From positions 1-31,933 of the forward strand of contig JAFGJI010000031.1 in the NCBI GenBank assembly GCA_016929175.1: DNA of 31,933 nt, given 5' to 3'. The position numbers and the translations under genes are program-made. Positions 5,901 to 29,889 of this stretch are shown in pieces. The notes beneath the pieces were generated by a model. It was not told the DNA's origin. It ran no database searches and saw only the letters and a program-made list of their open reading frames with translations. The DNA comes from Thermoplasmatota archaeon (GTDB lineage: Archaea; Thermoplasmatota; Penumbrarchaeia; Penumbrarchaeales; Penumbrarchaeaceae). The stretch's first letter is position 1, and every line of letters begins with the position of its first letter.

Positions 5901-6074
5901 GAACCTGACCTGTCGGGGATCGAGGTCCAACCAGGGGAAGAGGTCGAGGAGGTTCCCAGCCTGTGGGCGCTCATAATCGGAGGGATCTGTATCACGCTCC
6001 TGGTTGTGCTGGTGATCATCTTATTGATAGTTGTTATTGCACGAAGATCAGGAAAAGGACATGAGGAAGAATAG
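2979..6074 (+). CDS. Large surface glycoprotein: right-handed parallel beta-helix (pectin-lyase-like/NosD-like) region, tandem Ig-like (tandem-95/cadherin-like) repeats, C-terminal TM anchor
   Basis: TTG start 1 nt after the upstream stop; signal peptide; N/F/I-rich beta-helix ladders; INDAP/VNDAP and ENWYG repeat motifs; about 30 N-x-S/T sequons; C-terminal TM followed by RRSGK. Confidence 0.8.
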   Translation: MKRVACILIFLAMAMNMFNLTGNGEEQGTRATVLPPYVHNDFNFDEDEYLLIQDMYIDAGVQVNFTSCTVKVSKNTEPIRIWVDGNVKLGNVHFISGATDPRPGDWQGFVVRGRSNFAMGYSSIEHAVVGVDLFHSEDSTMIRFSSFTNMSIAGIRFNNFEYTNGTIYAPHDVYIYNTIFKDCGWGIIENGFNTEIEKCEFINNDPGGILVGNGTYPFSKGLYLDRNTFTDNRNASIQIGSEGDRSCGITDLHTYHNEFRSTGFAKNYVVSRIPSTNLTFQYDYFYEGYQGNIMEMEDCEDLLLRNNHFYGIEENGKFALLLSGFRNFNATSNYLFGMGGDMLVQDGDIAKFRVNQLRSECAITCNNVTDAAIHKNYGGFISVKKSAPVAIYDNRGSDIRVSGSINAREIGDILVFNNSVGQSEDTSMYFADNIRTYICNNSILRSGGSGMAFRSQYTSGIQYILENNTIMNSTDYDIEMDQFMEAEYGIIIKNTTFDPEKVKLEWNTTIQACWFMKVRTLNDIKGPLDAFMNVMNSTGIHDSDHEVSGEWGLVQGPYMEFVYNTTDTWEERSDPKYEDVMCDLTFTADNRLWETTVNWSRYLEMDLTLDAFPVFNDPEIIHFDEDQLLDLNISDLFSDLDAIDVEITGSDGNLTFENDTVRSTFENWTGTSNVTFRATDTFGNHTDGTVTFIVDPINDAPAISPEPDDIFMDEDTVHVIELGLHMYDAEDDLLEWTFEETEHLAISLDNVTWNLTIAPDENWYGNTSLTLHLGDGQTLSNITVEVNVRSVNDAPVFNAPENWNITVYRGTLQTIDLLSMVFDVEDDEISFSMDPSSEYVTITNGELAILFPESTDATLLTLEITADDGNGGTDTVSLRIIIDHGTSPPPEGWDLYSSNVEVDEKGNWYVGAAGSPGIDVYLVVKDEEGKTATYKMEEDSEHPGNYSLEIDSSKFEEGMVYSYFFTNATGNGDLEPDLSGIEVQPGEEVEEVPSLWALIIGGICITLLVVLVIILLIVVIARRSGKGHEEE

Positions 6075-8767: not shown

Positions 8768-9706
8768 CTATTTCGGTCCGGTCCTGCCTTCGGCCTTTTC
8801 CCTCAGCAGCTTATCCCGCCATGTATCCTGGACCCAGCCATCCCTGAGTACAGCGGAAAGGACGTTGGCAACCCCGTCGCATTCCTTGATGCCGTCCAGA
8901 AGCTCGTTGTATCTCCTGATCGAAGGGGACCACGCATAGCTGGAGATCAGTCCCGAGATGTTGCTGACCATGGTGAGGTTGAAAAGGGCCCCGTCGAATC
9001 GTTGGTTCAGTTCGTTCCGGACTTTCATCGGGTTCGCATCTTCCTTCAGTAGGATCCCGAGCATTGCGGTCATTCCAGACGCGTTCCCCGGACGCCAGTC
9101 AACACCGAAATTGACAGCTCCGTCCTCGATCAATCTATCGAGATGTCTCTTCACCGTTCTCGCCGATGCGTTGCACTTCTCGGCGATGTCACCGATCGCC
9201 ATACGTGCATCCTCGTGAAGAACATGGATGATCTGGAAATCCAGTCTGGACAGTTCGGAAGGTCCCTTGTAGCCGGTATCCAGCATCTTCTTGCCGAAAT
9301 GCACCTGGGAATGGAACAGGACATTCGGGGTGGGGATATTCGCCTCGTTTCGCAAGAATGCGACAACCGGGTCCAGGTCCGTGATGTCGTGAATGATGGC
9401 TTCCAGGAAGTACTGGAGCTGCCCCTCCCCGATGAAGATCGACTGTATCTTATCGTTGCTTCTCAGCGCCTTCTCCACATCTTCCGGTCTGCCCTTAGAT
9501 ACTCCCTCTATCAGAACACGGATCGCACGGAGGTATCCGAGAGATAGGGACGCTCTGAAACCTATGACAAGCTCCTCCTCCTTCAATATCTGCATCCGGC
9601 GATGTGTAGCCTGGACAGAGATATCAAGACGGTCTGCCAACTCCCGTATCGGGATCCTCGAATTGGCAAAGAGCATCTGACACAGGCGGATGTCCGTCTC
9701 GTCCAT
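8768..9706 (-). CDS. Double-length Lrp/AsnC family regulator (two HTH+RAM units), paralog A
   Basis: Two Lrp-type HTHs (MDETDIRLCQMLFANSRIPIRELADRL..; LSRLDFQIIHVLHEDARMAIGDIAEKC..SARTVKRHLDRL) in 312 aa. Confidence 0.85.
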   Translation of the reverse strand: MDETDIRLCQMLFANSRIPIRELADRLDISVQATHRRMQILKEEELVIGFRASLSLGYLRAIRVLIEGVSKGRPEDVEKALRSNDKIQSIFIGEGQLQYFLEAIIHDITDLDPVVAFLRNEANIPTPNVLFHSQVHFGKKMLDTGYKGPSELSRLDFQIIHVLHEDARMAIGDIAEKCNASARTVKRHLDRLIEDGAVNFGVDWRPGNASGMTAMLGILLKEDANPMKVRNELNQRFDGALFNLTMVSNISGLISSYAWSPSIRRYNELLDGIKECDGVANVLSAVLRDGWVQDTWRDKLLREKAEGRTGPK

Positions 9707-9730: not shown

Positions 9731-9738
9731 CTTAAAAA
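9731..9738 (-). promoter_or_regulatory. Putative TATA box for leaderless Lrp paralog A
   Basis: TTTTTAAG ends 24 nt before ATG 9706; no SD; overlaps the stop codon of paralog B. Confidence 0.45.
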
Positions 9739-10655
9739 CCTGCCCTCTCGGCAAGCAGCCGGTCCCGCCATGTCTCCTGGACCCAACCGTCCTGCAGGAT
9801 CTTAGACATGGTATGTTCGACCCCATCGATCCTCCCCATCGATCCTACGAGCTCCTTCTGCCGCATGACGGTCGGGGTCCAACTGTAGCAGCCGAGGACA
9901 TCAACAAGGTTGATGAACGATGTAATAAATATAATCGAGACGCCGAACGAACTGAACAGTTCATCCCTGACCTTGCCGAGCTCCGAACTCTGCCTGACCT
10001 TGACCATTATGAGAGAGGTGTTACCGCTCGTATATGCCGGGTTCCAGTCGAGACCGAATTCGACGGCTCCTTCCTCTATCATCCTGTCCAGGTGCCGTTT
10101 CACAGTTCGGGCAGACAGGTTGAGTTCGTCCGCGATATCTTCCACGGCCTTCCGGGAATCACCCTGGAGGGCCCGTACGATGCGGTGATCGACGGAGGAA
10201 AGCTCCGGAGGTCCAGTGTACCGTTTATTAACGACCGTGTCGCCGAACCGCACCTGGGATTCGATGGAGAAGAAGGGGTCCGGTATCCTGACGTCATTCA
10301 CTACGAAGTCCGAAATACTTTCAAGGTCCTTCATTTCCCTTGGTATAAACGATATGTTGAGGAACTCCTCTCCGGCAACCAGAACGACATAGACCATATC
10401 GTTCTTGCCAAGGACCCTCTTGATCTCCATATAATCCTCTATCTTCGTTCTTCCCGAAACATATACGCGACATGTATGCAGGTATTCCACCGACAGGCAA
10501 GTGATATATCTGTGAATGACCCCCTCGTCCTTGAGATTCTGCATCCGACGATGTGTGGCCTGGATGGAGATGTTCAACCGGTCTGCCAAATCCCGGATGG
10601 GCGCCCGGGAATTGGCAAAGAGCATCTGACATAGCCTGATATCTGTCTCATCCAT
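9732..10655 (-). CDS. Double-length Lrp/AsnC family regulator, paralog B
   Basis: Same architecture as 8768-9706; first 17 aa identical; second HTH SARTVKRHLDR identical. Confidence 0.85.
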   Translation of the reverse strand: MDETDIRLCQMLFANSRAPIRDLADRLNISIQATHRRMQNLKDEGVIHRYITCLSVEYLHTCRVYVSGRTKIEDYMEIKRVLGKNDMVYVVLVAGEEFLNISFIPREMKDLESISDFVVNDVRIPDPFFSIESQVRFGDTVVNKRYTGPPELSSVDHRIVRALQGDSRKAVEDIADELNLSARTVKRHLDRMIEEGAVEFGLDWNPAYTSGNTSLIMVKVRQSSELGKVRDELFSSFGVSIIFITSFINLVDVLGCYSWTPTVMRQKELVGSMGRIDGVEHTMSKILQDGWVQETWRDRLLAERAGF

Positions 10656-12537: not shown

Positions 12538-14928
12538 TCACTGGTACCTTAGGGCCTCCCCCGGTCTGAAACGACCCGCCCTGAAGAGGGGGGGCTGGAT
12601 TATCAAAGCGGAAATGATCACAGTGATCGCGAGCGATATCAGGACGAAGGGCAAAGGGAAAATGTATGCAATGTCCATTCCGCTGCTGGACCTGATGGAA
12701 TTCGTCAGTAGAACCTGTACACCATATCCAACCGGCAATCCTGCGATCCAACCACCGAGGGCGATTATCATACCCTCCATGCCAAAGACTGAGATGATGC
12801 TTCTCGAGGACGACCCCAGGCAGCGGAGTATACCGATCTCACGGGTCCGTTCGATGACGTTCATGGTCAGCATGCTCATCAGGCCGATCATGGTCACGAA
12901 AACTATGAGCGCTCCGGAGGCTATCATCATTGCTACTGTACTGTCCGCACCTCTTGTTATCTGAACGCTGTTTACGTACCAGATCTGGTTGGTGACCAGG
13001 TAACCACGTTTGATCAAAGTGTCCTCGATCATAGTGGCTACACGGTCTATCTCGGAGTGGTCCCTACTCTCGGTGAATATATTGAACCCGGATACCGTCG
13101 ATCCGTAACCCATAAGATACTTGACCATTCCAAAGGGCATGTACACTTCTGTGAATACCTGGATGCTGATACCGACCACTTTGAATGATACGGGGCCTGT
13201 CCGCGTCTTCACCTTAACGCTATCCCCCACCTCGATGCCCAAACTCGAGGAAAGCCGCTCGTTGATGACCAGCACTGGCTCGTTTCGCTCATACTCATCG
13301 TCAGAAAACCACCGGCCGGAGCTGATGGTCTTGTCTTGATCTATTGCCTCCGTATCATGAACGTATGCAAGAGCGATCGTATTGTAATCATCGAACCCGA
13401 CCATGGTGGATATGAAGGGTTCTGCATAGCGCACCCCGGGTATGCCATTGATGATATGTCCCACCTCCTCGGTCAGCGGATTGGCACTTTCCTCCTGCCC
13501 TATTGATTGGATATCGTAGGTGACGCAGGATATCTCCCGGTCGATCTCCTCCGACATCGCCACACAACAGGTTACCACGCCCAGGAGCATTCCTACGGCC
13601 AGTGCTACCTGGAAAATGGTCGAAAATGAACGACCCTTGCGGCGCGATGTGTTGCGTATCCCCATCTGGAAGACAACTGGAATTCTGGCCAATCCGGTAC
13701 TTATCATCAGTCTGTCAAGAAGGGAAGATCGATAGGATGAAGAAATGGAACTTCCTTCCATACCCTCACGGACCCCAACTCTCAGCGCTTTCAGCAGAGC
13801 AGGGGCTGAGGCAAGTACAGTAACTATACACCCGGTCGTGAAACCTATGATCACCGTGGGCAGATGGATACGGAATCCGACACGTATGCCGACCATATTG
13901 CCGAACATCCCCGCCATTCCCATGGTTATTAACAAGCCAAGTAGGGCTCCGATGGAAGAGCCTATGACCCCCATTATGAGAGAAGTTGTAAGATATGACC
14001 TGACCACCTGAGGACTTGTGGCTCCGATAGCCTTCATCTGTGCGATCTCCCTTCTCTGTTCGGTGATGATCGTATGCATCGTATTGGAGATGAGGAACAG
14101 ACCGCAGAAGAGGACAATGTAGGCGATCAGATTGAAAAGAGAACCTACGCTTTCTAACATCTCCTTCTGTGGCCAGTCGCCAGGTTTCCTGATATGAGGT
14201 GTTTGGGTGAAACCATTGAAGTCGGTCCTCTCTGTTAAACAAGCTTTCACATCATCAACGGTCCTGGTCACCGCTGCATTATCCGTTTCAACAAGGTCAA
14301 GGGTGAGTAAGTTGTATCCTGAAGTATTTGCAATACCCCGAACCGTATTCACATCGGTGTAGAACACCGCTACCTGTTCGAAGGGTTTCCCCGAAAAATG
14401 CGGAGTGTGGGCGATGCCAGTGACATTCATTTCCCTGACATTGCCAAAGGTGTCGTACATCCGCACCTTGTTGCCCATACCTGCCGTGTAGAGGCCAGTA
14501 TCAATATTGCTGCGCTCCGAGAGAAGGTCGCCCTTACCTGCCTCGGGTATATCCCCGTCCTCGATGGATATCTTATCCACTGACATGCTTTGAAAATCAT
14601 CAACACCAACGACCCAGGCGATGTTCCGGCGCTCCCCGAGATATATCTTGGTGTAGAGTATGAACATAGCTTCCGTATTTCGAACGTTGTCAAGTTCATT
14701 GATGGACCCGAGAACATCATCGTCCATTGCGGTATCATTGAATCTCAGAAGGACATCATACATGTTCGATCCGCGGATCTCATCCTGCATCGCTTGGTCA
14801 ACCAGAGGCATCACTCCGAACATTCCCAGTGCAGCCACACCAAGGATTATTGTCAGTATTGTGAAAACGGACCTTGCCTTTCGCTGTTTGAGATCTCGGA
14901 AGGATTTGTTTAAAAGAGTTGATTTCAT
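12538..14928 (-). CDS. ABC transporter permease, FtsX/MacB-like, internally duplicated
   Basis: Two MacB-PCD/FtsX halves (ITEQRREIAQMKAIGAT; VIERTREIGILRCLGSS). Start taken at ATG 14928 after GGGAGG; the ORF-track extension overlaps the ATPase. Confidence 0.9.
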   Translation of the reverse strand: MKSTLLNKSFRDLKQRKARSVFTILTIILGVAALGMFGVMPLVDQAMQDEIRGSNMYDVLLRFNDTAMDDDVLGSINELDNVRNTEAMFILYTKIYLGERRNIAWVVGVDDFQSMSVDKISIEDGDIPEAGKGDLLSERSNIDTGLYTAGMGNKVRMYDTFGNVREMNVTGIAHTPHFSGKPFEQVAVFYTDVNTVRGIANTSGYNLLTLDLVETDNAAVTRTVDDVKACLTERTDFNGFTQTPHIRKPGDWPQKEMLESVGSLFNLIAYIVLFCGLFLISNTMHTIITEQRREIAQMKAIGATSPQVVRSYLTTSLIMGVIGSSIGALLGLLITMGMAGMFGNMVGIRVGFRIHLPTVIIGFTTGCIVTVLASAPALLKALRVGVREGMEGSSISSSYRSSLLDRLMISTGLARIPVVFQMGIRNTSRRKGRSFSTIFQVALAVGMLLGVVTCCVAMSEEIDREISCVTYDIQSIGQEESANPLTEEVGHIINGIPGVRYAEPFISTMVGFDDYNTIALAYVHDTEAIDQDKTISSGRWFSDDEYERNEPVLVINERLSSSLGIEVGDSVKVKTRTGPVSFKVVGISIQVFTEVYMPFGMVKYLMGYGSTVSGFNIFTESRDHSEIDRVATMIEDTLIKRGYLVTNQIWYVNSVQITRGADSTVAMMIASGALIVFVTMIGLMSMLTMNVIERTREIGILRCLGSSSRSIISVFGMEGMIIALGGWIAGLPVGYGVQVLLTNSIRSSSGMDIAYIFPLPFVLISLAITVIISALIIQPPLFRAGRFRPGEALRYQ

Positions 14929-14953
14929 CGTAGGTCGCCTCCCATATTCAAGC

Positions 14954-15634
14954 TCATGTGTTTTCTGCCTGGACCTGTCCATCACGAATAGTGATCCTAC
15001 GCATCGCCCGGGCTGCCAGGTCCTTTGAGTGTGTGACATATATGATTGTCTTGCCCTGGTCATTGAGCTTCTTGAGGAGGTCGAACATGGCCGCTTCCGT
15101 CTGAGAGTCCAGGTTCCCAGTTGGCTCGTCCCCGATGATTATCTTGGGGTCGCAGGCCAGAGCCCTGGCGATGGCGACTCTCTGCTGCTCTCCACCCGAG
15201 AGTTCCGAGGGTAGATTGTTCAGCTTGTCGCCGAGACCCACTAGTGTGAGATTCCTCACCGCGGTCCTTCTTCGTTCCGAATTGGAGCCCATGTGGGCAA
15301 GGTCCAAAGGCAGCATCGCATTCTCCAGGGCAGTCAGCGTGGGGAATAGCTGGAAGAACTGGAATATGATGCCCACATTCCTCCCTCTCCACCTTGCCAA
15401 CTCATTCTCGTTCATGGTATCTATTCGGGTACCATCCACTATGACGGACCCTGATGTAGGACGGTCGATCCCGGTGATCATATTCAGGATGGTTGATTTA
15501 CCCGATCCCGAAGGACCCACGATTGCTGTCACCTGTCCGCCTGCGATGGTTAGATTGACATTCTTGAGCGCTTGATATTCGACCTTGCCTGCCGCGTAGA
15601 CCTTGTCAAGGTTCTTCAGTTCGATCTTGCACAT
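14954..15634 (-). CDS. ABC transporter ATP-binding protein, LolD/MacB/SalX-like
   Basis: Walker A GPSGSGKST, LSGGEQQRV signature, Walker B IIIGDEPTGNLD, H-loop VTHS; GGTGA SD 5 nt before ATG 15634. Confidence 0.95.
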   Translation of the reverse strand: MCKIELKNLDKVYAAGKVEYQALKNVNLTIAGGQVTAIVGPSGSGKSTILNMITGIDRPTSGSVIVDGTRIDTMNENELARWRGRNVGIIFQFFQLFPTLTALENAMLPLDLAHMGSNSERRRTAVRNLTLVGLGDKLNNLPSELSGGEQQRVAIARALACDPKIIIGDEPTGNLDSQTEAAMFDLLKKLNDQGKTIIYVTHSKDLAARAMRRITIRDGQVQAENT

Positions 15635-16001
15635 ATTTTTCACCTGTATCCATCGATCTTAGGGAGGCCTTTACAACCTCTGAGGAGGCCGATGAAGAAG
15701 AGTATAATAATGGCATGTTCACCATGGAATTGAAAAAGGAACATTCAAGATCCGCCCATATGGACGATCCTTCATACCGATAATTGATGAAATGGACAGC
15801 GGTATCTTTGAATTGAACTAGCCAGTCCTTAAAATAAGAAGGTTCTCATGATCATTCCATTAATGAGTAGGCAGAGCGATCATCGTTCTCTTCCCCTGAT
15901 ATCGTCGATCAAACCCTTGATATTTGTTTTTTCATCCGATCGGTCTCTTGATCATCGATTATCCTGCTTCACGTTATTTGGACTCCGACCAACCATGTCC
16001 A

Positions 16002-18837: not shown

Positions 18838-19305
18838 TCAGGTCCGATCCCACATATCGTCCGGGAGCTCCCCGTAGAGTTCCTCCCCGTCCACATCCGG
18901 TATCAGAGAACCGATGTCTCCGCCGCATGTTCTCTGGCTTTCGGTAAGGTCGGCGATATATTTCTTTTTCAACGTCCAGTAGTTGATCCTCCACTCCCTT
19001 CCATCGTAGAGAGTGGTCTCCTCCCTCTCGGTCTTCAGGATTCCCAGGTCCTCGAGCATGTAGAAGATGTCCCTGTCATCCGTTTTGAGCATGTTGTCTA
19101 TGATACGCTCTCCGAAGCCGAAGAAGTTCAGCACATGTTCGGCCATCTCCTCGGCCACGCCCACCTCCAGGGAGCCCTCCTGGTTCTTCTTCTTGAAAGA
19201 CCTCTGGATCGCCGTGGTCAGAACGAAACGTGAAACTACGTCGCCCTTTCCTCCGCAGAAGTCCATCATCATTGGTTTTCCCAATACATCTTCTTTCAAT
19301 ACCAT
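18838..19305 (-). CDS. DUF6015-like conserved archaeal protein (winged-helix-like)
   Basis: AEHVLNFFGFGERIIDN..DRDIFYMLEDLGIL.TEREETTLYDGREWRINYW recognised from memory; the start codon is uncertain. Confidence 0.65.
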   Translation of the reverse strand: MVLKEDVLGKPMMMDFCGGKGDVVSRFVLTTAIQRSFKKKNQEGSLEVGVAEEMAEHVLNFFGFGERIIDNMLKTDDRDIFYMLEDLGILKTEREETTLYDGREWRINYWTLKKKYIADLTESQRTCGGDIGSLIPDVDGEELYGELPDDMWDRT

Positions 19306-19455
19306 GAGAATTCTGTCCCTTTGGATCTTTCAACTATATACCTTACCGTATGATTTTCTATCCTAATTAAAATTCCCCCTGTTCTCAATTGGAGCGAATG
19401 CGCGGACTAACTTTAAAAACACCTTTGGAACTGCTATGTCCGAGGGTGAGTGCAA

Positions 19456-20655
19456 ATGACGTTGCCGAAGCTCAGCGAGCAGACAGTAAGGGTAGTGGTT
19501 GTCGTCTTCTCCCTGGTGGGAATGGCGGTCCTCGGCATCATTGCGGCAGTGACGGAGGTGGAGAGGATACGCGTGGCGGAAGCAGCAGACCACTCCGGAG
19601 AACGGGTGGAAGTTGTTGGATCGGTAATAGGATCGGCAACATCGGCCTCGGGCTCCTCCTGGGTCCTGATAATGGAGGAAAATGTCACCATGGAGGTGTT
19701 CATAGAGAACGGAAGACCGGACATCGAGCCCGGAACGCTGATATCCGTTGAAGGGGAGATCACCATGATAGGAGGAGATCCTGTCCTAACTGTCCAGAAG
19801 GTGGAGGATATCCGGGTGGAGGAACGATCGACCGTTCAGATGTACGAAGGAAATGCAGTCCCTGGCATACCGTATTGCCTGAAGGTGATGGTACGATCCT
19901 CGACCCATACCGGATGGATCGACCAGGAAGTGGTGGCCATTCCACTCGGGGGGAACGGCCTGGAGGAGCTTCCCGTTTTCCTTACCGTCAACAGGCTGGA
20001 CATGGACCTGAGACCGGGGGATATACTTAACCTGACAGCCGTCTTCACAGGCCCAAGTTCGGGGATGGTCTATGGCGATCTCAACTGCGAGCTCCTGGCC
20101 CGGGCCGAGGTTCTGACCACGAGCCTGCTCTGGCTGGTGAACGAGATGAGGTCATCACCCTCATCGGCTCCTATAGATCCCATCACGCTGGAGGGGTATA
20201 TCAAATACCCTCCGGGAGGAAAGACCGTGTACATATCGGAGATGGTGGAGGGAGGTGAGATCTCCGTCAGGGTCAGACTGCCGCAGGAGCGGTCCGATAT
20301 CTCAATGGGTGACCTCGTCAGGCTTTTCAACTGTTCCTTCTCATGGGATGTGGAGGGAATGAGAATGGAGCTGATCGCAGAAGAAAGTGAAATACTGGAT
20401 GTCCACGGTCCCTGGAGGCTCAACCTCGGGTCGATGGAGTGGGGGCTTCTGGATTTCGTGGACTGCAGGGTTGTAATTTCCGGGGCTGTCGAGGTGGCAG
20501 GGAACAGTACCAGGATAGTTCAGGACGGGGTCTCTCTCGAGGTCAGGAACTATACAGGTCCGATCGGTTACGGTGATACGAAGGTTACTGGAAAGCTGCT
20601 TTATGATGAGGTCATGAACACCCTTTATCTGGAGTCGGAGGCGGTCGCCTCGTGA
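19456..20655 (+). CDS. N-terminally membrane-anchored protein with about four tandem OB-fold-like domains
   Basis: A single TM (VVVVVFSLVGMAVLGIIAAV) precedes four ~90-aa beta-rich units, each with a G[DT]..V.V.G-type motif (IEPGTLISVEGEI, LRPGDILNLTAVF, ISMGDLVRLFN, IGYGDTKVTGKL). GAGGGTGA SD. Confidence 0.7.
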   Translation: MTLPKLSEQTVRVVVVVFSLVGMAVLGIIAAVTEVERIRVAEAADHSGERVEVVGSVIGSATSASGSSWVLIMEENVTMEVFIENGRPDIEPGTLISVEGEITMIGGDPVLTVQKVEDIRVEERSTVQMYEGNAVPGIPYCLKVMVRSSTHTGWIDQEVVAIPLGGNGLEELPVFLTVNRLDMDLRPGDILNLTAVFTGPSSGMVYGDLNCELLARAEVLTTSLLWLVNEMRSSPSSAPIDPITLEGYIKYPPGGKTVYISEMVEGGEISVRVRLPQERSDISMGDLVRLFNCSFSWDVEGMRMELIAEESEILDVHGPWRLNLGSMEWGLLDFVDCRVVISGAVEVAGNSTRIVQDGVSLEVRNYTGPIGYGDTKVTGKLLYDEVMNTLYLESEAVAS

Positions 20656-22010
20656 TCGACACGATATTGCTGATCCTTCTCGGGGCCCTTGCGGGGACAG
20701 GTTTCGGGGTGATGACGGGTCTGATCCCCGGCGTACACGTGAACAACGTGGCCATTGTCCTGCTTGGACTGAGCCCGATCATCTCCTCCGCTCTCCAGGA
20801 CCTCACGGGACTTGGACAGACCGAGGCCATGCTCATGGTCGCCTCCGCCATAGTGGCCACTTCTATGGCCCACACTTTCCTCGATTTCATACCATCGACC
20901 TTCCTTGGTGCCCCTGAGGCTGAAACCGCGCTGTCGGTCCTTCCTGCCCATGGGATGCTCCTGGAAGGGAACGGTTACAGTGCGATCTTCCTATCCGCGG
21001 TGGGCTCCTTCGGGGCCATAGTGGCAGGGACCCTTCTTCTGATACCCTACAGTCTTCTGGTCAATGATCCGATAAACGGATACCAGCTTCTGAAAGAGGT
21101 GATGGTATGGGTCCTGATAGGAGTTGTGGTCCTTATGCTTGTGACCGAGACAAAGAAGGTCCCGTATATTCCTTACCGCACGGGGGATGGAAAGTTGATA
21201 TGGTCGGAGGGCAGGTTCTCATCGGTCCTTGGCGTTCTCGGGGCATTCCTTCTCTTTTTGACATCCGGTCTGCTGGGGCTCATAGCTCTCGACCTCGAAC
21301 TGAGCTCCCCCTTCGGACTTCCGGCAACCTCTCTCTTTCCCCTGCTGTCAGGTCTCTTCGGGACATCCACCCTGCTGGAATCACTCAGAGGGGGCGCCAC
21401 GGTACCGTTGCAGAGGATAGAGAAGCAATCGGTGGACCCTGCAGAAGCCGTGTCCTCCATCACTTCAGGCTCGATAGCTGGTTCGATCGTAGGCTTTCTG
21501 CCTGGAATGAGCGGCGGTGTTGCCACCGTGATAGCCATGATATTCAGGAAGGAGCCCAAGCCAAGCTCGGTCATACTGACACTCTCGGCCATCAACACGG
21601 CCAATTCGTTCTTCGTTCTCGGGGCGCTTTTTTTAATACTGAGGCCGCGTTCGGGAGCTGCCATCGTTGTGAATGAACTTGTGAACGTGAGGGAATGGAG
21701 CGACATGCTCCCTCCATCCGAGCTCTCCCTCCTGCTGATGTCGGCCCTCCTCGCTTCATGCCTGGGGTTCTTCCTCACCCTCATTCTCGGATCAAAACTG
21801 GCCAATATCATGCCCCGTCTTCCATACAGCAAGGTGGCCTGGAGCATAATCATCCTTATCGCATTGATGGTCCTTGCCTTTACGGGCCCTATTGGCCTCC
21901 TGGTGCTTGCCGTATCGACATCGCTCGGCATGATGGCACCCTTGACCGGGATCAGAAGGTCGCACGCCATGGGTGTTCTTCTGCTTCCAGTCATCACAAT
22001 GATATGGTAG
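20652..22010 (+). CDS. DUF112 / TctA-like (tripartite tricarboxylate transporter-like) integral membrane protein
   Basis: GLIPGVHVN, FLDFIPSTFLGAP, VLPAHGMLLEGNG motifs; second-half repeat GFLPGMSG; many hydrophobic segments; GTGA overlap with the OB-fold gene. Confidence 0.85.
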   Translation: MIDTILLILLGALAGTGFGVMTGLIPGVHVNNVAIVLLGLSPIISSALQDLTGLGQTEAMLMVASAIVATSMAHTFLDFIPSTFLGAPEAETALSVLPAHGMLLEGNGYSAIFLSAVGSFGAIVAGTLLLIPYSLLVNDPINGYQLLKEVMVWVLIGVVVLMLVTETKKVPYIPYRTGDGKLIWSEGRFSSVLGVLGAFLLFLTSGLLGLIALDLELSSPFGLPATSLFPLLSGLFGTSTLLESLRGGATVPLQRIEKQSVDPAEAVSSITSGSIAGSIVGFLPGMSGGVATVIAMIFRKEPKPSSVILTLSAINTANSFFVLGALFLILRPRSGAAIVVNELVNVREWSDMLPPSELSLLLMSALLASCLGFFLTLILGSKLANIMPRLPYSKVAWSIIILIALMVLAFTGPIGLLVLAVSTSLGMMAPLTGIRRSHAMGVLLLPVITMIW

Positions 22011-22042: not shown

Positions 22043-24649
22043 TCATGATATCGAGGTCATTCTGCTGTAGCAGTCCTTACCGATCTCCAATGCCTTGATG
22101 TACTGCTTCTGGATCACAAGGTCCTGGATCTTCTCGATATCCTTTTTGTATTCCTCTGTCTCCATTCCCTTGGAATGCATTCTCGTGATCTCAACCTTGA
22201 TCTTTGGGATCAGCGTGAAGAGCTCGGTCCGGGCCTGTTCGTCCTCGGAGAACGCTCCCCTTCGTAAGCTGTTCAAAGAGGTCATTCCATCCCTGGCATC
22301 CGGTCCCCGGTACTGGTCTTCCATGATGGTGCTTACCATCTCCTTCTTCAGCTGTTCGGGCGAAGCCATCAGGAGTGCATTGACCTCATGGTCCATCTCG
22401 GTAAGTGCTTTCTCTGCATTCGGGGCGTCGAGGGAATCTATCAATGCAGTGATGTTCGATATCCTCTGCTTGAAACCGTCCACGGTCACACCCGATCTCT
22501 CGAGCCTGGCGATCTTTCCCTTCTGTGCCAGCAGGTTGCCCCCGAGTTTGTCCATTTTGTCCTGGAGTATCATCCTTTCCGATATCTTTTTTAAGAGTTT
22601 CTCGGTCACACGGGAGAGTAGCTCATTGGCTCCATTGACGTCTCCCACCTCCCTCAAGACCCTGGACTTGGTGAGTATTGCCTTGTATTGGGACACTTCC
22701 ATGCCGATCTGTCTGCCCTGCTTGATCAAGTCTGACATCTGGATTATAAGGTCCTGTGCTTTGAAGGCAGATGCCTTTCTTGCAAGCGATTCCCGGAAAC
22801 CGGTGAGATCCTCAAGGGCATCCCGGATCCTCCCCTCGTCGGCAAGTGAGTATGCTGCCGATATCTTTTCGTTGACATCCCCCATCTCCGATCCATGTTC
22901 CTTGCATTGGGAAGCCAGATCGCGTATCTCGATCTCCAGGGAAGAGAACATCCTCCGGGTCATCCGATCTTCAAGTTCAACCTGCGCTTCGATGTAAAGG
23001 TCAACTGCCTTTTCAGGCTCCTTTGCCTTGACCAGTTCGTTCGCTCTTGAGAGCTTTTCCCTTGATGATGAGACATCCACCTCAAGGGCATCGGCTTCCA
23101 TGATCATTTCCTCGACGATCTGCTTTCTCTTGTCGACCGTCCTGTACAACAGGCGTGGGTCGATCTTGTCCAGGAGTCTTTCGGAAGCTCTCACGGCCTT
23201 CTCGTACTTTCGGTCAAGGTAAAATGATCGCATCTCATCCAGCTCATTTTCAAGGTCCTTGACGTCCTGACCTCCTTCCGTGAGCTCCTTCATCTTGTCC
23301 ATTATCTTTGTGAGGTTCTTTTGGTATTCTATCTTGATCTCTTCATTTGATATGTAAACGAGCCTCTGATCTATCACGGTCATGATCTTCTCCAAAAGTT
23401 GCATATTATGGTCTTTCAAGGATCTCAGGGCTTCGTTAACCGGGCCTTTGAGGGGAGTGATATCCAGCCCTTTCTTGTGCATGACCGCCATCGATCTCTT
23501 GATCTCTTCCATCCTCAAGGTCGCGAATTCGAATGCCTTTTCCTCCTTCAGTCGGGAGAGCTCGGACTCGGCCCCATTTACCAAAATATAGGCTTCATCC
23601 ATTGCTCCATCCATAACAAGCCCGTCAGCCCTTTCCAGGATGTTCAGGACTGCTGATGGATCGATCAACTTGACGATATCCTCCGCCGTGCTTCTAAGTT
23701 CGGATATCTTCTTCTGTATTTCCTTGACGGGTTTCTCCTCGATCTCTGTAGCTTCGGAGGCCACTCTGTCCAGGAAGGTCTTCATGGCCGCCAGCGCCTC
23801 TTTAGGGTCCTCCCGTGCCATCTCGATGATCGAATCCTGCTTCTTCTTCAGGTCCAGGTAAAGCTTTGAACCTGTCCCCTCAGATGCCTCGATCTTGCCC
23901 ATCAGAGGCGCGACCGAAAGGAGAAGGGCTTCCAGTTTCCTGAATTCCGCGACATTACTCTCCGATCCAACTCTGGAAGCGAGGTCCCGGCTCTTTTCCC
24001 AGGCGTCGATTAGATCCCCATCGAACAGAAACCTCCTGACCTCACCAAGCTCTTCTCTCAGGGAGGTCGTATCCAGCTCTGATGAGATCTCGTTGATCAT
24101 TTCTTCGACCTTTGACAGGGATCTGTTGGTCTTCATGGTAAGGTCTTCGGTCAGCACTTTATGGAGGTTTTCCGCTTCATTCTGGATATCCTTCAATGAT
24201 GAGAGAACATTCTTCATCCCTTCGGGATCAGCATCCTTCTGGCGCTTGAGGCATTCCGAGAACCTCTCTTCTATTTCCCTGATCCTTTCCAATTCACCGG
24301 CTCTTTTGAAATCGTTCATCAGCACTCTAAACTTGCCGTTGATGCCCGTGATGCTCTCTTTGATCTTTTCCTGATCGGAAGGGGTTTCATCCTTAACGAC
24401 CCGGGTGGCGCCCATTTCTGCTTTAATGGTCTTTTCCTCGAGCTTTTTCAGTATTTGCTCGAACTTTTCAAAGGCTTCATCGACCTTTTGCTCATCGTTC
24501 ACTCTCGATATGACTTGTTCCAGGTCCTTGAAGATCTCCCTGGCCCTCTTCGTATCGGCAACTTTCTCTTCCAGTTTGCCGATACGCAGGTATAGGGCCT
24601 CCATCCTATCCGAATGTGTTGCCTTTGTGTCCTTTGCCATCTGGATCAT
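22043..24649 (-). CDS. Soluble all-helical tandem-repeat protein, 868 aa, unknown function
   Basis: E/K/L-rich; no signal peptide, TM or Walker motif; recurring G-x-[DE]-[VIT] turn every 63-71 aa. The start could be ATG 24640. Confidence 0.8.
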   Translation of the reverse strand: MIQMAKDTKATHSDRMEALYLRIGKLEEKVADTKRAREIFKDLEQVISRVNDEQKVDEAFEKFEQILKKLEEKTIKAEMGATRVVKDETPSDQEKIKESITGINGKFRVLMNDFKRAGELERIREIEERFSECLKRQKDADPEGMKNVLSSLKDIQNEAENLHKVLTEDLTMKTNRSLSKVEEMINEISSELDTTSLREELGEVRRFLFDGDLIDAWEKSRDLASRVGSESNVAEFRKLEALLLSVAPLMGKIEASEGTGSKLYLDLKKKQDSIIEMAREDPKEALAAMKTFLDRVASEATEIEEKPVKEIQKKISELRSTAEDIVKLIDPSAVLNILERADGLVMDGAMDEAYILVNGAESELSRLKEEKAFEFATLRMEEIKRSMAVMHKKGLDITPLKGPVNEALRSLKDHNMQLLEKIMTVIDQRLVYISNEEIKIEYQKNLTKIMDKMKELTEGGQDVKDLENELDEMRSFYLDRKYEKAVRASERLLDKIDPRLLYRTVDKRKQIVEEMIMEADALEVDVSSSREKLSRANELVKAKEPEKAVDLYIEAQVELEDRMTRRMFSSLEIEIRDLASQCKEHGSEMGDVNEKISAAYSLADEGRIRDALEDLTGFRESLARKASAFKAQDLIIQMSDLIKQGRQIGMEVSQYKAILTKSRVLREVGDVNGANELLSRVTEKLLKKISERMILQDKMDKLGGNLLAQKGKIARLERSGVTVDGFKQRISNITALIDSLDAPNAEKALTEMDHEVNALLMASPEQLKKEMVSTIMEDQYRGPDARDGMTSLNSLRRGAFSEDEQARTELFTLIPKIKVEITRMHSKGMETEEYKKDIEKIQDLVIQKQYIKALEIGKDCYSRMTSIS

Positions 24650-24735: not shown

Positions 24736-27513
24736 CTATTCCCCGATGGAAGTATTCCCCTCATTGCCTTCGGAGCTTATGGTGTGTTCTATTATATGGG
24801 CCCCCTCACTGGTATTTTTACCCAGCCCGGCCTTCGGCAGCGAGGAAACGGGAACGCCTGAACCTTTTTCATCATGCCCTTCCGGAGGGGCCGTGCCGTA
24901 GAGGTCCTGGTAGGATGCGGGTTTTGCACCCTCATTTTCGACCTCCTTGTCGAACAGGTCCTTCCCTTCCTCCCTCATCTTCCTGACATGATCTATGAAC
25001 TCCTGTTCCTCCTTCTTCTTCTCTTTGGCCTGCTTCCTTGCGAAATAGAATGCAGCAAGGCCGATCAGGATTAGCAGAACGACCAGGGCTATGACCACCC
25101 CGATCTTGGTCGATGTTGAGATATCAGCCAGGTTCGATCCCCCTCCGCCTCCCGAAGAGCCCTCTGGCTTGATCGGACCGACAACAAGCGCTCCTTCTCC
25201 AGCCGTATCGGACATCTCGTACCTTTCCACCATGCCCATCGATTCTCTGTAGGGCACTGCATGCTCGGATACGGCGAAGAGGGAAAAGTTCAAGGGGTCG
25301 ATCGGCAGGTCCAGTCCTCCTTCCACGAGTTCCGTAAAGGGGATCAGCCACACGATCGACCTTTGATCGATAATGGTACCGGTGCTCATATTGTGGAGGG
25401 CAGGATCCCCCAGATATTGCCTTTGGGCAATGATATCTCCATCGAATGGATGCCTGTCGGGAACCTGTGCCCATTCACTGATGTTCTGAAGGTCCATTAC
25501 ACCCTCGGAATATCCGGGTTCAAGTACGTATATGAAATATCTGAAGGTGCCGTCGATCTGTATGGAGTCCTTGACGCTGAGAGTGACCTCGAGGTCGTTC
25601 CCTCTCCTTCGACACACAAGGGAGGTTATGTCCACTCCCGCTTTTTCCAGCTTTTCCACCTTGAACTTTTTCTCGTCATCGGCGGAATTTGGCCTCCAGC
25701 TCTCCCCGAACTTCACGACATCTCCGGAAATATCCGGAAAGCTCTTCACGAGATCATCTTTTGACAGGTCCTCGGGTTTCTCGAGGAACAGTAGGATGGT
25801 GGCAGTGCTTGTCAGGCGGCCGTCGGAGACCGTGAGCCTGACCGTACGGTTCCCGTAGATGCCTGTTGCGTATACATGCGAGGAGGTGCGGCCCTGGCTT
25901 GTTCTCCCATCACCCCATTCCCATGTAAAGGTGAGAACATCACCGTCCGGGTCCGCTCCGATCACGGCTTCCGCATGGACCTCTTCGCCGGGGAGAACGG
26001 ATCCGGGGTCAACCCCGGTGACCTTGATCTGGGGTGTTGGAGGTCTCTCGTTGACGGCTTCTATCCTGAGGTGTATATCGATCACAACGATGTCATGTGT
26101 ATCGGACATCTGAAGATCGAACATGTAATCTCCGACATCCTCCTGCACTGCTTCTATGGTCATGGTCCCGTTAACGGGATTTATTTCCAGGAAATCGAAC
26201 GTCTCGTTGGATGCGAAGAATATCCGTGAGATGGGGTCGTCCTCATCATCATAGGTCAATTTATAGATCTTTATCTCGTCCTCGTAGGCGAACATGTTGA
26301 ATACCCCGCCCTTGTATTGTGCTTCACCGATCTTTTCCATGTAGGGAAGGTCGTTGACCGAGGTCACATTGACCGTGATACTGTCGGTGATATTGCCGTC
26401 TGGGTCACTGCAGCGAAAGGTGAGGACCTCGTCCCCGTACCAGTTGTGATGCGGGACCACGCTGACATTGACAGCTACCACTTCCCTTGCAAGGTTTGTG
26501 GTGTAGACGAACTGTATGTCAAGGTTTTCTGGTTCATCGACGAGCTCGAACTCGAGATCATCGCCATTTGGCTCCATGAAATGTCTTGTCAGGTTTATAT
26601 TGGGGAACAGAGGTTGGTCCTCGCTGGTCCTCGCCATTGTCCATGGGTCCGAGGGGTTTACCATGGGCTTGGTCAGATGCGACCACAGTACGATCTCCAG
26701 ATTGTACGGTTTCTTCGATGTGGGGTAGCCCCCTCTCGTTGAAAGTCGGACATAGACCCGGAGTATGATCTCAATGGGTTCGCCGCCATCGTTTGTGAAG
26801 ATGTAGGACCCCCCGCTTCCGAGTTCGGCGAACATGAAATAGGTCTCGTTGAGTACCTGAAGCTTGAATGTCAGATCGCCCTCGAATACGATCGTGGCTT
26901 CCAGGGACCGCTCCGATGGTACGGATATATGGAAATAATCCACCATATCCTTAGAGGGGTCCAGGTAGTTCGCCACATCGACCGAATCGGAGAACCCGAT
27001 CCCCGGAGGAACGTTGTTCTTATCGTAGGGACGGTTGTCAACGTTCATGTTTCCCCCCTGATATACCTCGTAGGAGGAGCTGCTTCCCCTGGGATCGGTC
27101 ATTACAAGCAGGAAATAATCCCCGTCCCTGGGAACGATGAACGCAAGCTCCTCGATAGCACCTTCAGAATAGATCTCCCCCATGACCAGTCCGTTGGGCT
27201 CCATCAGGATGCCTTTGACATTCGCGCCGCTCGTCCTCTTCAATCCGATGGAGTACTCCTGGGCTTTCAGCTGGTCGTTCTCCGTATCCCCGATCAGGTC
27301 AAGGATGCGGTACCAATCCTCGGTATCACTGGCGTCAAGATAGCCCGAGAAAGGGTTCGTATCGAAATACAGGTCCTCGGCATCCTCCATGGAATTGTTG
27401 GGCTCGGCCCTTGTGGGCGGGTCCGCGGTTCCCGGTGGAACGGAATTCATCAGGAGGAGGATCAGAGCGGTCGAAGCCGTGATGAGCGCCCAAGTACGTT
27501 TTCCGAATAACAG
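24736..27513 (-). CDS. Modular surface protein: two PPC-like domains, tandem-95/cadherin-like Ig repeats, PKD domain, membrane-proximal domain, TM and acidic cytoplasmic tail
   Basis: LDASDTEDWYRI and LDPSKDMVDYFHI (PPC-like); NWYGDEVLTF and VNDLP; PKD motif TFTWEWGDG..SHVY; TM followed by RKQAKEKKKE. The first ATG (27450) truncates the signal peptide; a CTG start at 27513 is proposed. Confidence 0.8.
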   Translation of the reverse strand: MLFGKRTWALITASTALILLLMNSVPPGTADPPTRAEPNNSMEDAEDLYFDTNPFSGYLDASDTEDWYRILDLIGDTENDQLKAQEYSIGLKRTSGANVKGILMEPNGLVMGEIYSEGAIEELAFIVPRDGDYFLLVMTDPRGSSSSYEVYQGGNMNVDNRPYDKNNVPPGIGFSDSVDVANYLDPSKDMVDYFHISVPSERSLEATIVFEGDLTFKLQVLNETYFMFAELGSGGSYIFTNDGGEPIEIILRVYVRLSTRGGYPTSKKPYNLEIVLWSHLTKPMVNPSDPWTMARTSEDQPLFPNINLTRHFMEPNGDDLEFELVDEPENLDIQFVYTTNLAREVVAVNVSVVPHHNWYGDEVLTFRCSDPDGNITDSITVNVTSVNDLPYMEKIGEAQYKGGVFNMFAYEDEIKIYKLTYDDEDDPISRIFFASNETFDFLEINPVNGTMTIEAVQEDVGDYMFDLQMSDTHDIVVIDIHLRIEAVNERPPTPQIKVTGVDPGSVLPGEEVHAEAVIGADPDGDVLTFTWEWGDGRTSQGRTSSHVYATGIYGNRTVRLTVSDGRLTSTATILLFLEKPEDLSKDDLVKSFPDISGDVVKFGESWRPNSADDEKKFKVEKLEKAGVDITSLVCRRRGNDLEVTLSVKDSIQIDGTFRYFIYVLEPGYSEGVMDLQNISEWAQVPDRHPFDGDIIAQRQYLGDPALHNMSTGTIIDQRSIVWLIPFTELVEGGLDLPIDPLNFSLFAVSEHAVPYRESMGMVERYEMSDTAGEGALVVGPIKPEGSSGGGGGSNLADISTSTKIGVVIALVVLLILIGLAAFYFARKQAKEKKKEEQEFIDHVRKMREEGKDLFDKEVENEGAKPASYQDLYGTAPPEGHDEKGSGVPVSSLPKAGLGKNTSEGAHIIEHTISSEGNEGNTSIGE

Positions 27514-27636: not shown

Positions 27637-29889
27637 TCACTGCGGAGGCATCGGTGTTTCCGGAATGGGTTCCTCGGGAACCGGTTCCTCGGGGGCGGGC
27701 ATTTCAGGTTCCACGGGGGGCTCTTCGGAGCCTTCCATCGGGAACTCGCCTTCCTCGGGTGGGACCTCGGTTTCCTCTGTCGGCATCTCGCCTTCTTCCG
27801 GCGGCGGCATCTCTTCCTCGAGGGGTGCCTCCGGTTCTTCCTCTTTCTTGCCCTTCATCATGAAGACGACAATGAGGATGATGGCTATCACGATGACGAT
27901 CACGATGATCAGTATGATGAGCCAGAGCCAGCTATCCTCTTCTTCGTCATCATCCACAACATCATCATCGTCAACGACGGGTATAAGGTGTACGACCGCG
28001 CTCTTTCCGGCAGAATCGTATCCCGCCTTCAGGGTAGGTGCCAGTAGAGTGCCACCGTGGTCCTCAAGAGTTGCAACGAAGAACAGATTGAAATCATCCT
28101 TCGTGATCCCCGCATCGTCGAGGTCGGACAGGGCTATTCTGAAGACCATGTCGTTTCCGGTGATCGTCGCATCGGTCGCATCCAGGTAATCCCATAAGAA
28201 ACCTATGCTGTAGACATCGGCCTCGGCGGGCTCGAAGTCCATATCGGGTGATGCCTGGTTGAACTTGGTTTCGGTGAATGTTGACTTCACGAAATAGAGC
28301 CTGTATTCCGGTACTTTGTAGTTCCCGTCTACCATGTCAGCAAGTGACAGGGTGTAGGGAGCTCCTGCAAAGGTTATGGTCACCACCAGTTCGGTATCCT
28401 CGAGCGCGGTTGCGATCGCGGTGATATCAATGCCCTGGTAATCGGCCGCCAGCCTGAGATTGCTGTAGGTGTAGGGGGGCACGAGACCTCCTATATCGGC
28501 CACGACCACATCTCCGGACCCCTCGGTATAGTTGACGACCACATCATCGGCGGTCCATGTGGGGGCTGGTTCCGTAACATTGACCCAGAAGTACAGGAGA
28601 TCCGAGGTCAGGTCACCGTCGGTGACCCAGACGGTGATGTTGTAGATACCCTCGTCGGACCAATTGTAAAGGAAATAGTCCATGTTCCAGTCCTCAACCT
28701 CGACCTCATCGATGTACCACATGATGGTCAGCTCCTCGCTGTCGATATCATCGACAGAAACGGAGACGTTCACGGCCTCCAGAGGCTCGACATCGAGCTG
28801 GTCTCCCATCTCGATCGTGTCGAACATTATGGTCGGTGCGTCGTTGACCCCAGTTACATTGAACCAGAGTGTCTCTGTAACAACGTTTGCACCGTCGCTG
28901 ACCGTGAGGACAGCTTCCCAGATGCCGAACATGTTCTCGTCCCCGATGAAGTGGAACCAGCATGGGATCGACTCGTTCATGAGCGCGAGGGTGTAGTAAT
29001 CTCCTTCTGCGATCTCGTACGTGAGCTCGTCCTTTGCGGTCTCCACATCGGTCGCGTTGACGGTGAAGTTGACCTCCATCTCGTCCTCCATGATCGGGAG
29101 ATCTATTACCTCCACCGTGGTCCAGTTGATCGCCTCGCCGGAAGTCTCGTTCCATTCGGTCTCGATGGTCCTTTCCACGACCGTGTAGGTCGTATCCTTG
29201 TATTCGATGCCTATTATGATCGGATCATCATTGACCGCCGATACAGTGAAGGTGTATGTGTTGTTGACCTCCATGCCGTTTACGTCGGTGGCGAAGACCT
29301 TCACATCCTCGGTACCGGACCATTCTGCTGCAGGGGTCACTGTCCATATGGCGTATTCCCCCTCGCCTTTGGCGAAGGTGAGGTTCTCCGGGGCAGCTTC
29401 CTCGGCAAAGGTCAATCCCTCGCCACTGAACTCAGCGGAGAGGTTCCATTCCAGTGGAACGTCCTCTTCCATGGCGACAGCGCTGGTCCCTATGAACTCG
29501 GGATAGGCGAACACATGGAACGTACCGGTGGTGTTCCACTCGGCACTGTCGGTGTTGTTCGTCACCATGACCATCCAATCGTGGTCTCCGGCCACTGCGG
29601 TCCAAACCCATTCAAAGTAGTCATGATCCGTATTGTACGTTGGTGTACCAGTGACCACCTCATTGAGTTTCAGTTCCACGGTGAAATCCGCAGCGATGTC
29701 CCATTCGTACCCCCAACCTGTAAGGTTGAAGACAACGTCATCTCCTGCATATATCGGTCCCTCGGTAACAGTTACGCTGAGCGTTGTGGGGTTTTCAGCT
29801 CCCTCTACAAAGAACAACCCAGCGAATGCCACCGCAAATAGGGCCATGGTCAGAGTTATGGCCATGGCTCTTCTTTTCATTGTGCTCAT
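27637..29889 (-). CDS. Very acidic surface glycoprotein with Ig-like (tandem-95-like) repeats, TM anchor and Pro/Glu-rich cytoplasmic tail
   Basis: Signal peptide MSTMKRRAMAITLTMALFAVAFAG; VNDDP/VNDAP motifs; many N-x-S/T sequons; TM WLWLIILII.. followed by KGKK; GGTGGTGA SD. Confidence 0.85.
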   Translation of the reverse strand: MSTMKRRAMAITLTMALFAVAFAGLFFVEGAENPTTLSVTVTEGPIYAGDDVVFNLTGWGYEWDIAADFTVELKLNEVVTGTPTYNTDHDYFEWVWTAVAGDHDWMVMVTNNTDSAEWNTTGTFHVFAYPEFIGTSAVAMEEDVPLEWNLSAEFSGEGLTFAEEAAPENLTFAKGEGEYAIWTVTPAAEWSGTEDVKVFATDVNGMEVNNTYTFTVSAVNDDPIIIGIEYKDTTYTVVERTIETEWNETSGEAINWTTVEVIDLPIMEDEMEVNFTVNATDVETAKDELTYEIAEGDYYTLALMNESIPCWFHFIGDENMFGIWEAVLTVSDGANVVTETLWFNVTGVNDAPTIMFDTIEMGDQLDVEPLEAVNVSVSVDDIDSEELTIMWYIDEVEVEDWNMDYFLYNWSDEGIYNITVWVTDGDLTSDLLYFWVNVTEPAPTWTADDVVVNYTEGSGDVVVADIGGLVPPYTYSNLRLAADYQGIDITAIATALEDTELVVTITFAGAPYTLSLADMVDGNYKVPEYRLYFVKSTFTETKFNQASPDMDFEPAEADVYSIGFLWDYLDATDATITGNDMVFRIALSDLDDAGITKDDFNLFFVATLEDHGGTLLAPTLKAGYDSAGKSAVVHLIPVVDDDDVVDDDEEEDSWLWLIILIIVIVIVIAIILIVVFMMKGKKEEEPEAPLEEEMPPPEEGEMPTEETEVPPEEGEFPMEGSEEPPVEPEMPAPEEPVPEEPIPETPMPPQ

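Follow-up and report, generated by a model that had tools for sequence, protein, structure and literature searches.

A translationally coupled gene pair for a membrane-anchored OB-fold protein and a TctA-like permease in a Thermoplasmatota archaeon, and its possible role in nucleic acid import

The DNA analyzed here (hereafter the window) is a stretch of 31,933 nucleotides, contig JAFGJI010000031.1, from a Thermoplasmatota genome bin that was recovered from a sediment metagenome and is 79% complete. Two plus-strand open reading frames (ORFs) in this window, at positions 19450/19456-20655 and 20652-22010, are the subject of this report, and we call them gene A and gene B. Gene A starts at the ATG at position 19456, and its product is 399 amino acids (aa) long, as is an identical copy found in the database (P0003). 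An earlier examination of the letters and their ORFs, made without database searches (the sequence-only reading), had described the two genes as overlapping by GTGA. This is correct, as the gene A stop codon (TGA, 20653-20655) overlaps the gene B start codon (GTG, 20652-20654). Because the flanking genes are a divergent gene for a DUF6015 protein on one side and a convergent ORF for a coiled-coil protein of 868 aa on the other, A and B form a two-gene unit. This locus is not represented in any RNA run. The features of the pair, which include oligonucleotide/oligosaccharide-binding (OB) folds, are as follows.

19442..19449, plus strand: purine-rich, Shine-Dalgarno-like stretch GAGGGTGA, 6 nt upstream of the gene A ATG; putative role, judged from its sequence
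19456..20655 (stop codon included), plus strand: gene A, 399 aa, membrane-anchored protein with four tandem OB folds (ORF, P0003, AlphaFold2 model)
19477..19551, plus strand: transmembrane anchor helix of gene A, residues 8-32, predicted N-in/C-out; the sole hydrophobic segment, seen as a helix in the model, and the predicted interface with the permease
19555..19833, plus strand: OB fold 1 (OB1), residues 34-126, from structure matches; together with the anchor helix, the part conserved phylum-wide
19834..20106, plus strand: OB fold 2, residues 127-217, from the hhalign comparison D1-D2 and the beta-strand pattern in the model
20107..20406, plus strand: OB fold 3 (OB3), residues 218-317, from the hhalign comparisons D3-D4 and D2-D3
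20407..20652, plus strand: OB fold 4, residues 318-399, from the hhalign comparisons D3-D4 and D1-D4 and the alignment with RFA
20637..20641, plus strand: GGAGG within the 3' end of gene A, 10 nt upstream of the gene B GTG; putative role, likewise judged from sequence
20652..20655, plus strand: GTGA start/stop overlap (translational coupling), read from the sequence
20652..22010, plus strand: gene B, 452-aa TctA-like permease of a divergent archaeal subfamily (PF01970, BLASTP, AlphaFold2 model)

The protein encoded by gene A has no Pfam or NCBIfam match of its own. Its family is small and consists of proteins of ~400 aa, for which an exhaustive search with phmmer yielded 46 matches, 19 of them with E values below 1e-30. 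An AlphaFold2 model built from a 33-row alignment has a mean predicted local distance difference test (pLDDT) score of 89.2 and shows four beta domains after the N-terminal helix (residues 8-32). The first of these domains superimposes on the anticodon-binding domains of the aspartyl- and asparaginyl-tRNA synthetases AspRS and AsnRS (Z 14.3, root-mean-square deviation 1.5-1.8 A, ~90 residues) and on RPA domains of Methanococcus maripaludis and Methanocaldococcus jannaschii (Z 13.3-13.9), and as modeled it is a canonical OB fold. Furthermore, the four domains are homologous repeats because profile-profile comparisons among them with hhalign gave probabilities of 78-97% (D1-D2, 97% with an E value of 5e-11; D3-D4, 96%; D1-D4, 92%; D2-D3, 89%; D1-D3, 78%). 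The sequence-only reading had proposed one N-terminal transmembrane (TM) segment followed by about four RPA-like OB domains, and AlphaFold2, hhalign, and Foldseek all agree with this architecture.

Comparisons of the whole chain lead to the same class of proteins. Foldseek matches include the tandem-OB DNA binders p204 HIN, TEBP-alpha, BRCA2, RADX, POT1, CTC1, LEF-3, and RPA70, and the top structural match in Swiss-Prot is RFA of M. jannaschii, which aligns over residues 33-393. The structural neighbors of the array also include extracellular nucleases that carry OB arrays, namely YhcR and an EEP nuclease. At the level of sequence, 11 of the 33 family members exhibit matches to PF01336, and one short homologue scores above the gathering score. 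Sub-threshold matches to DUF4131 were observed in three relatives of gene A; this domain is the N-terminal region of ComEC, which also holds an OB fold beside TM helices. When the gene A profile was compared with the sequences of the PDB, none was significant (best E value 0.15).

Residues 9-440 of gene B match PF01970 (TctA) and span positions 1-422 of the 423 in the profile; the score of 183.6 bits (E value 6.5e-54) exceeds the cut-off of 28.9. Gene B is the one TctA-family gene in the source genome. Over the full length, its identity to the sole TctA-family gene of Methanoculleus palmolei is 32% (E value 2e-54). In contrast, BLASTP revealed no detectable similarity (E value 0.12) between gene B and a canonical archaeal TctA from another genome (G309), and a profile of the gene B subfamily also does not detect this canonical protein. 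The latter scores 436 bits against the Pfam TctA model and is encoded at a locus (L022:289-2943) with a TctC fragment upstream. Because the canonical TctA has no BLASTP similarity to the TctA-like subfamily, PF01970 comprises two sharply separate groups. By these sequence comparisons, gene B belongs to a divergent TctA-like subfamily that contains a gene essential for transformation (see below).

The absence of a TctB or TctC partner from the window, remarked upon in the sequence-only reading, extends to the rest of the available genome. Neither TctB (PF07331) nor TctC (PF03401) was matched in the window or elsewhere in the genome, which is 79% complete, so that absence from it is not proof; the search for TctC gave matches in controls. 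The same reading had envisaged such a pair in a genome that lacks ComEC, and the ComEC competence domain PF03772 indeed has no match in the 79%-complete source genome, whereas 10 control genomes were matched. Nor does the operon include a gene for a YdjM-type membrane hydrolase; the single YdjM gene of the genome is located on a different contig, next to NYN and PD40 genes.

A genetic precedent exists for a pair of this kind. The sequence-only reading had referred to genetic screens in naturally transformable methanogens that implicated a membrane transporter of this type, and such a study exists. Fonseca et al. (2023) recovered transposon insertions in MMJJ_13020, which encodes an OB-fold protein with a single TM segment, and in MMJJ_13030, whose TctA-like product has 11 TM segments (PMC10133366). 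In-frame deletion of either gene abolishes natural transformation of M. maripaludis, and both deletions were complemented (PMC10133366). A TctA-like homologue is also essential for transformation in Methanoculleus thermophilus, and the TctA-like protein was proposed to be the archaeal DNA transporter (PMC10133366). Since the same hypothesis was published in 2023 (PMC10133366), the idea that an OB/TctA-like pair takes up DNA is not new and is essentially that of its authors. We found no later mechanistic study of the MMJJ_13020/MMJJ_13030 module in the literature searched, where its sole other mention concerns a selenium response.

The methanogen module and the A/B pair share several characteristics. 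In both, a gene for a single-TM protein with OB folds of the nucleic acid type is located directly upstream of the gene for a TctA-like permease, and neither includes TctB or TctC. The two methanogen genes also abut one another, as A and B do through GTGA; their junction reads TAAATG, as can be deduced from the published deletion primers DF1-226 and DF1-229. The N terminus of MMJJ_13030 deduced from the primers (M-I-N-N-L-F-F-L) follows the same pattern as the TctA-like N termini observed in this study. The A/B pair differs in that it comes from another phylum and carries a four-OB array (399 aa). A second connection is provided by the gene tested in M. thermophilus (SAMN04488571_104187), which belongs with its M. 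palmolei counterpart to the same TctA-like subfamily as gene B. The M. palmolei gene (L006:2845-4065) lies between sequences that match the M. thermophilus deletion primers, and the sequence with which the downstream deletion arm begins is matched 15 nt past its stop codon. Orthology of the M. palmolei gene to the gene tested in M. thermophilus is therefore supported by synteny. We also observed a gene for an IS605-type TnpB protein (L006:1253-2821) between hemD and the TctA-like gene of M. palmolei, within the region spanned by the primers. Given this body of evidence, we consider it somewhat probable that A and B are the Thermoplasmatota counterpart of the OB-fold/TctA-like module needed for M. 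maripaludis transformation and that they serve to import DNA or another nucleic acid.

The pairing is conserved well beyond the source genome. We surveyed 301 Thermoplasmatota genomes with the gene A profile and PF01970, comparing the listed coordinates by eye. The gene A profile found matches in 184 of these genomes, and PF01970 found matches in 249. Among the matches listed, 92 genomes carry both genes, and in 81 of them the gene A homologue directly precedes the TctA-like gene, with both on one strand. By inspection, we found in one additional genome (G055) two coupled OB genes upstream of a second TctA-like gene. The pairing is not a product of chance because this order and strand recur in 81 of the 92 comparable genomes. 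The junctions in relatives are also tight, with overlaps of 8 nt at two loci (L010 and L011) and a gap of 3 nt at a third (L009). It is true that some genomes carry one gene without the other, as would be expected if A and B were mere neighbors that have no functional link. However, this explanation is disfavored and seems scarcely credible, given the GTGA overlap, an order and strand that are retained in 81 of 92 genomes from several classes of the phylum, the same pairing in M. maripaludis and in cyanobacteria, and a complex prediction (described below) that passed, albeit weakly.

The length of the gene A product varies in a manner that points to a conserved core. It is ~400 aa in the class of the source organism and elsewhere ~200 aa (anchor helix, OB1, and one more OB fold), ~340 aa, ~600 aa, or, as an open frame, up to 976 aa, and the number of OB folds varies between lineages. 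The portion that homologues share corresponds to profile positions ~7-130, which is the anchor helix plus OB1. Several candidates were set aside during the survey. An apparent fusion of gene A and TctA in a relative (G099, an open frame of 848 aa) proved to be two genes 3 nt apart, and a TctA ORF of 647 aa (L032) is an artefact of arginine-rich ORF extension in GC-rich DNA. Two distant phmmer matches (P0148 and P0153) have no adjoining TctA-like gene and were left out of the adjacency argument.

Nucleic-acid-related genes recur as neighbors of the TctA-like gene in other lineages. A tblastn search of 72,556 plasmids with the permease returned only two records, both of them cyanobacterial and both with a PF01336 OB gene just upstream, from Cylindrospermopsis (NZ_CP060823.1, L014:3180-7358) and Pseudanabaena (L015:2874-5368). 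In one of these two plasmids, a NERD nuclease-related gene is located downstream of the OB/TctA-like pair. In a genome of the Halobacteriota (G318), the TctA-like gene is preceded on its strand, at a distance of 106 nt, by a gene (L033:195-1367, plus strand) for a nuclease that has one TM segment, an SNase (thermonuclease) domain, and a lamin-tail domain (LTD). Transformation of M. maripaludis requires a thermonuclease as well. As a separate observation, a gene for the archaea-specific, uncharacterized DUF2240 protein lies convergently and directly downstream of the TctA-like gene on the minus strand at L010:2784-3272 and L011:2447-2908, in two unrelated genomes from classes of Thermoplasmatota other than that of the source.

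We also examined whether the two proteins are predicted to interact, using the gene B permease, gene A residues 1-130, and custom alignments. The resulting score was 0.50, compared to 0.00 for the best control, and it passed a mark that 58 of 80 solved complexes attained, as did 2 of 110 mismatched pairs. Among scores of 0.60 or less, only 7 of the 80 solved complexes passed, along with both of the passing mismatches. Modeling of the pair, which the sequence-only reading had put forward, thus produced a pass with the anchor helix on the permease and a verdict of weak support. In the predicted interface, which OB1 lies outside of, the anchor helix of gene A (residues 3-35) contacts the permease at residues 113-127, 258-266, and 351-377. 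The permease helices predicted to be in contact with it span residues 108-137 and 356-389. As modeled, these results weakly suggest that the anchor helix docks on the permease.

Three properties of the gene A family bear on the location of the OB array. First, the charge difference between the N-terminal flank of the helix and the 15 residues that follow the helix is positive in 33 of 33 family members. Second, N-X-S/T sequons number 155 in the family, compared to 57 expected from shuffles. Third, the gene A ectodomain has an isoelectric point (pI) of 4.4 and a net charge of -30, and in this respect it resembles the predicted surface proteins of the window (pI 4.05-4.4) and not its cytoplasmic ones. 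Because of this charge bias, sequon excess, and surface-protein-like acidity, the array appears to face outward, and gene A is probably an N-in/C-out protein with a glycosylated extracellular OB array. The placement of the array outside the cell in the sequence-only reading thereby gains indirect support, and the orientation itself stays a prediction.

A protein displayed in this way might instead take part in the biogenesis or maintenance of the cell surface. The OB folds could bind, for example, oligosaccharide or parts of the S-layer or pilus, the permease could export or flip a precursor, and DNA uptake would be affected only via the envelope or the pili. Oligosaccharides are among the established ligands of OB folds, exposure on the surface and glycosylation are probable for gene A, and the window is rich in large acidic surface proteins. 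Moreover, archaea cannot be transformed without pili, and a flaw in the envelope could therefore look like one in uptake. We nevertheless judge this explanation to be improbable. The gene A family matches the nucleic-acid-type domain PF01336, its closest structures are the OB domains of RPA, of aminoacyl-tRNA synthetases (anticodon-binding), and of nucleases, and nuclease genes recur beside the module in unrelated lineages. Likewise, no gene for a glycosyltransferase or a pilus component is linked at the locus.

If A and B are indeed a nucleic acid import module, they might operate as follows. Gene A would be inserted with its N terminus inside the cell, leaving a chain of four OB folds on the cell surface. 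Its single helix would dock on the TctA-like permease made from the translationally coupled downstream gene. The OB chain could then capture nucleic acid from outside the cell, of which single-stranded or frayed DNA is the most plausible kind. OB3, whose aromatic and basic residues are the most conserved, might be the likeliest binding site. Specifically, when conservation was counted over the 20 closest family members, OB3 proved to contain the densest cluster of such residues (Y248, K250, Y251, Y259, R272, W297, and R303). Finally, the chain would feed the nucleic acid to the permease, which would provide all or part of the passage through the membrane into the cell. Imported DNA might then be recombined or used as food. 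That the ligand is a nucleic acid is suggested by OB folds of the PF01336, RPA, and YhcR type, by the recurrent neighboring nucleases, and by the aromatic/basic cluster of OB3.

Several observations weigh against this proposal. Some of these concern its link to the methanogen module. The homology of A/B to MMJJ_13020/MMJJ_13030 is established by architecture and subfamily rather than by direct alignment, and the published role of the module comes from knockouts, whose effect could be indirect. In M. palmolei, the TctA-like gene stands alone, as its upstream genes encode HemD and the IS605 TnpB and there is no OB gene; the gene A profile also finds nothing convincing in that genome. Others concern the competence apparatus, because in the 79%-complete source genome DprA was not found and the prepilin peptidase match is only sub-threshold. 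In addition, the pass of the complex prediction is weak. The ectodomains across the family are strongly acidic (pI 4.2-5.1, net charge -12 to -45), and DNA binding would therefore be unfavorable without cations or a local basic patch.

The two genes also occur apart. Many lineages keep the TctA-like permease without an OB partner. In one family of Thermoplasmatota, 36 of 36 genomes have the TctA-like gene and none has a gene A match, and three inspected loci of this family show no upstream partner. Conversely, two Thermoplasmatota genomes carry gene A without a TctA-like gene. In the genome G150 (a single contig), a gene A homologue of 418 aa (L013:2716-3972) adjoins a ribonucleotide reductase gene and the genome has no TctA-family match; the OB protein can therefore exist without the permease. 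Among 61 sampled Halobacteriota genomes, 50 have the TctA-like gene, which mostly stands alone, in agreement with Makarova et al. (2015) on arCOG04469, and no OB partner was found in this sample with the gene A profile or with Pfam applied to ten candidate upstream ORFs. Thus, the adjacency across archaea that the sequence-only reading anticipated was found in 81 of 92 Thermoplasmatota genomes, and not in most of the sampled Halobacteriota, where the permease is encoded alone.

The predicted structure of the permease adds a further difficulty. The AlphaFold2 model of gene B has a pLDDT score of 85.7. As judged by VIA-align, the structures nearest to this model are secondary transporters, namely YS1/OPT (Z 11.3) and DASS, Pho90, ArsB, and TRAP proteins (Z 5-7.6), and all of these values fall below the level that excludes generic helical resemblance. 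The model has no likeness to any known nucleic acid channel, Foldseek found no match to it in the PDB at an E value of 0.001 or less, and no PDB sequence matched the gene B profile significantly. By its model, the permease has the look of a carrier for small solutes and not of a channel. Of the TctA-like channel described in the sequence-only reading, the TctA-like part is upheld by the full-length PF01970 match, and the channel part is not.

These observations raise the possibility that the pair is an ordinary small-solute secondary transporter for a carboxylate, a nucleotide, or another anion. In this case, gene A would be a tethered accessory or substrate-binding subunit that replaces TctB/TctC, and the methanogen defect would be indirect. 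Gene B does fall within the Pfam TctA family, its model is nearest to OPT, DASS, TRAP, and ArsB proteins, and the OB array is highly acidic. TctA-like genes are also near-universal in lineages not known to be competent (249/301 Thermoplasmatota and 50/61 Halobacteriota) and often lack an OB partner. Furthermore, when selenium is limiting, expression of MMJJ_13030 rises along with that of several transporter genes (PMC11097638), and carboxylate transport has been proposed for arCOG04469 (PMC5898192). Regardless, gene B has no detectable pairwise similarity to canonical TctA and no TctB/TctC, both M. maripaludis genes are specifically essential for transformation and were complemented, and the recurrent neighbors of the TctA-like gene are nucleic-acid-type OB folds (PF01336) and nucleases. 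A four-OB, RPA-like chain would also be an odd receptor for a small anion. On balance, we regard small-solute transport as unlikely, though it deserves to be taken seriously.

It is conceivable, if somewhat doubtful, that a TctA-like secondary-transporter fold has been recruited as a ComEC-independent route for nucleic acid import. The anchor helix and OB1 would then be the conserved docking piece, and DNA capture from the environment would be tuned by how many OB folds follow, which ranges among lineages from one or two to four or more. In that event, the module would be a widespread means of DNA uptake in uncultured archaea of sediments and the sea, as well as in some bacteria.

Archaea lack ComEC, and for the passage of DNA across their membrane the one lead from genetics is the OB-fold/TctA-like pair found in M. 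maripaludis. The locus described here shows that this pairing is a conserved, translationally coupled operon across Thermoplasmatota, which are abundant in sediments and oceans. The locus also offers handles for its study in the anchor helix plus OB1 core, the variable number of OB folds, the OB3 cluster, and the predicted helix-permease interface. Any model of a DNA channel must answer for the acidic ectodomain and the transporter-like fold.

Several other genes in the window are worth recording. Next to gene A on its upstream side, in divergent orientation, is the DUF6015 gene (18838-19305, minus strand), which may be served by the same promoter region as the pair; a DUF6015 gene is placed likewise in the relative G099 (L009:3162-3626). 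The ORF for the 868-aa coiled-coil protein, at 22043-24649 directly downstream of the pair, has no Pfam match. Three genes, at 2979-6074, 24736-27450, and 27637-29889, encode giant, very acidic surface proteins (pI 4.05-4.4), whose domains are of the beta-helix, cadherin-like, Big_9, and PKD types. Adjacent genes at 8768-9706 and 9732-10655 (both minus strand) encode paralogous regulators that each have two AsnC-type/winged-helix HTH domains. A MacB-like ABC exporter pair, consisting of an FtsX/MacB_PCD permease and an ATPase, is located at 12538-15643 (minus strand), and further on are genes for a DUF2703 protein, a UbiA prenyltransferase, and a protein with a double thioredoxin fold.

Beyond the methanogen module, four known systems can be compared with the A/B pair. 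The tripartite tricarboxylate transporters (TTT) of bacteria and haloarchaea, TctABC, share with gene B the full-length PF01970 domain. Gene B is unlike them in that it has no TctB or TctC, scores 183 bits against the Pfam model, compared to 436 bits for a canonical archaeal TctA, and has a BLASTP E value of 0.12 to that protein. The resemblance to ComEA/ComEC is by analogy only, in that an extracellular DNA-binding element is placed beside a polytopic membrane protein; the A/B pair differs by the lack of PF03772 in the genome, by its other membrane fold, and by the lack of a metallo-beta-lactamase nuclease domain in the operon. The RFA protein of M. jannaschii has four tandem OB folds, all of which are covered in the alignment with gene A. 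However, RFA is cytoplasmic and soluble, whereas gene A is membrane-anchored and predicted to face outward, and the two are 16% identical with no sequence-level match. Lastly, although the surface nuclease YhcR of Bacillus subtilis possesses nuclease and 5'-nucleotidase domains that gene A lacks, it carries N-terminal OB folds as an extracytoplasmic tandem array, and it is the third structural match of gene A in Swiss-Prot (E value 8e-10).

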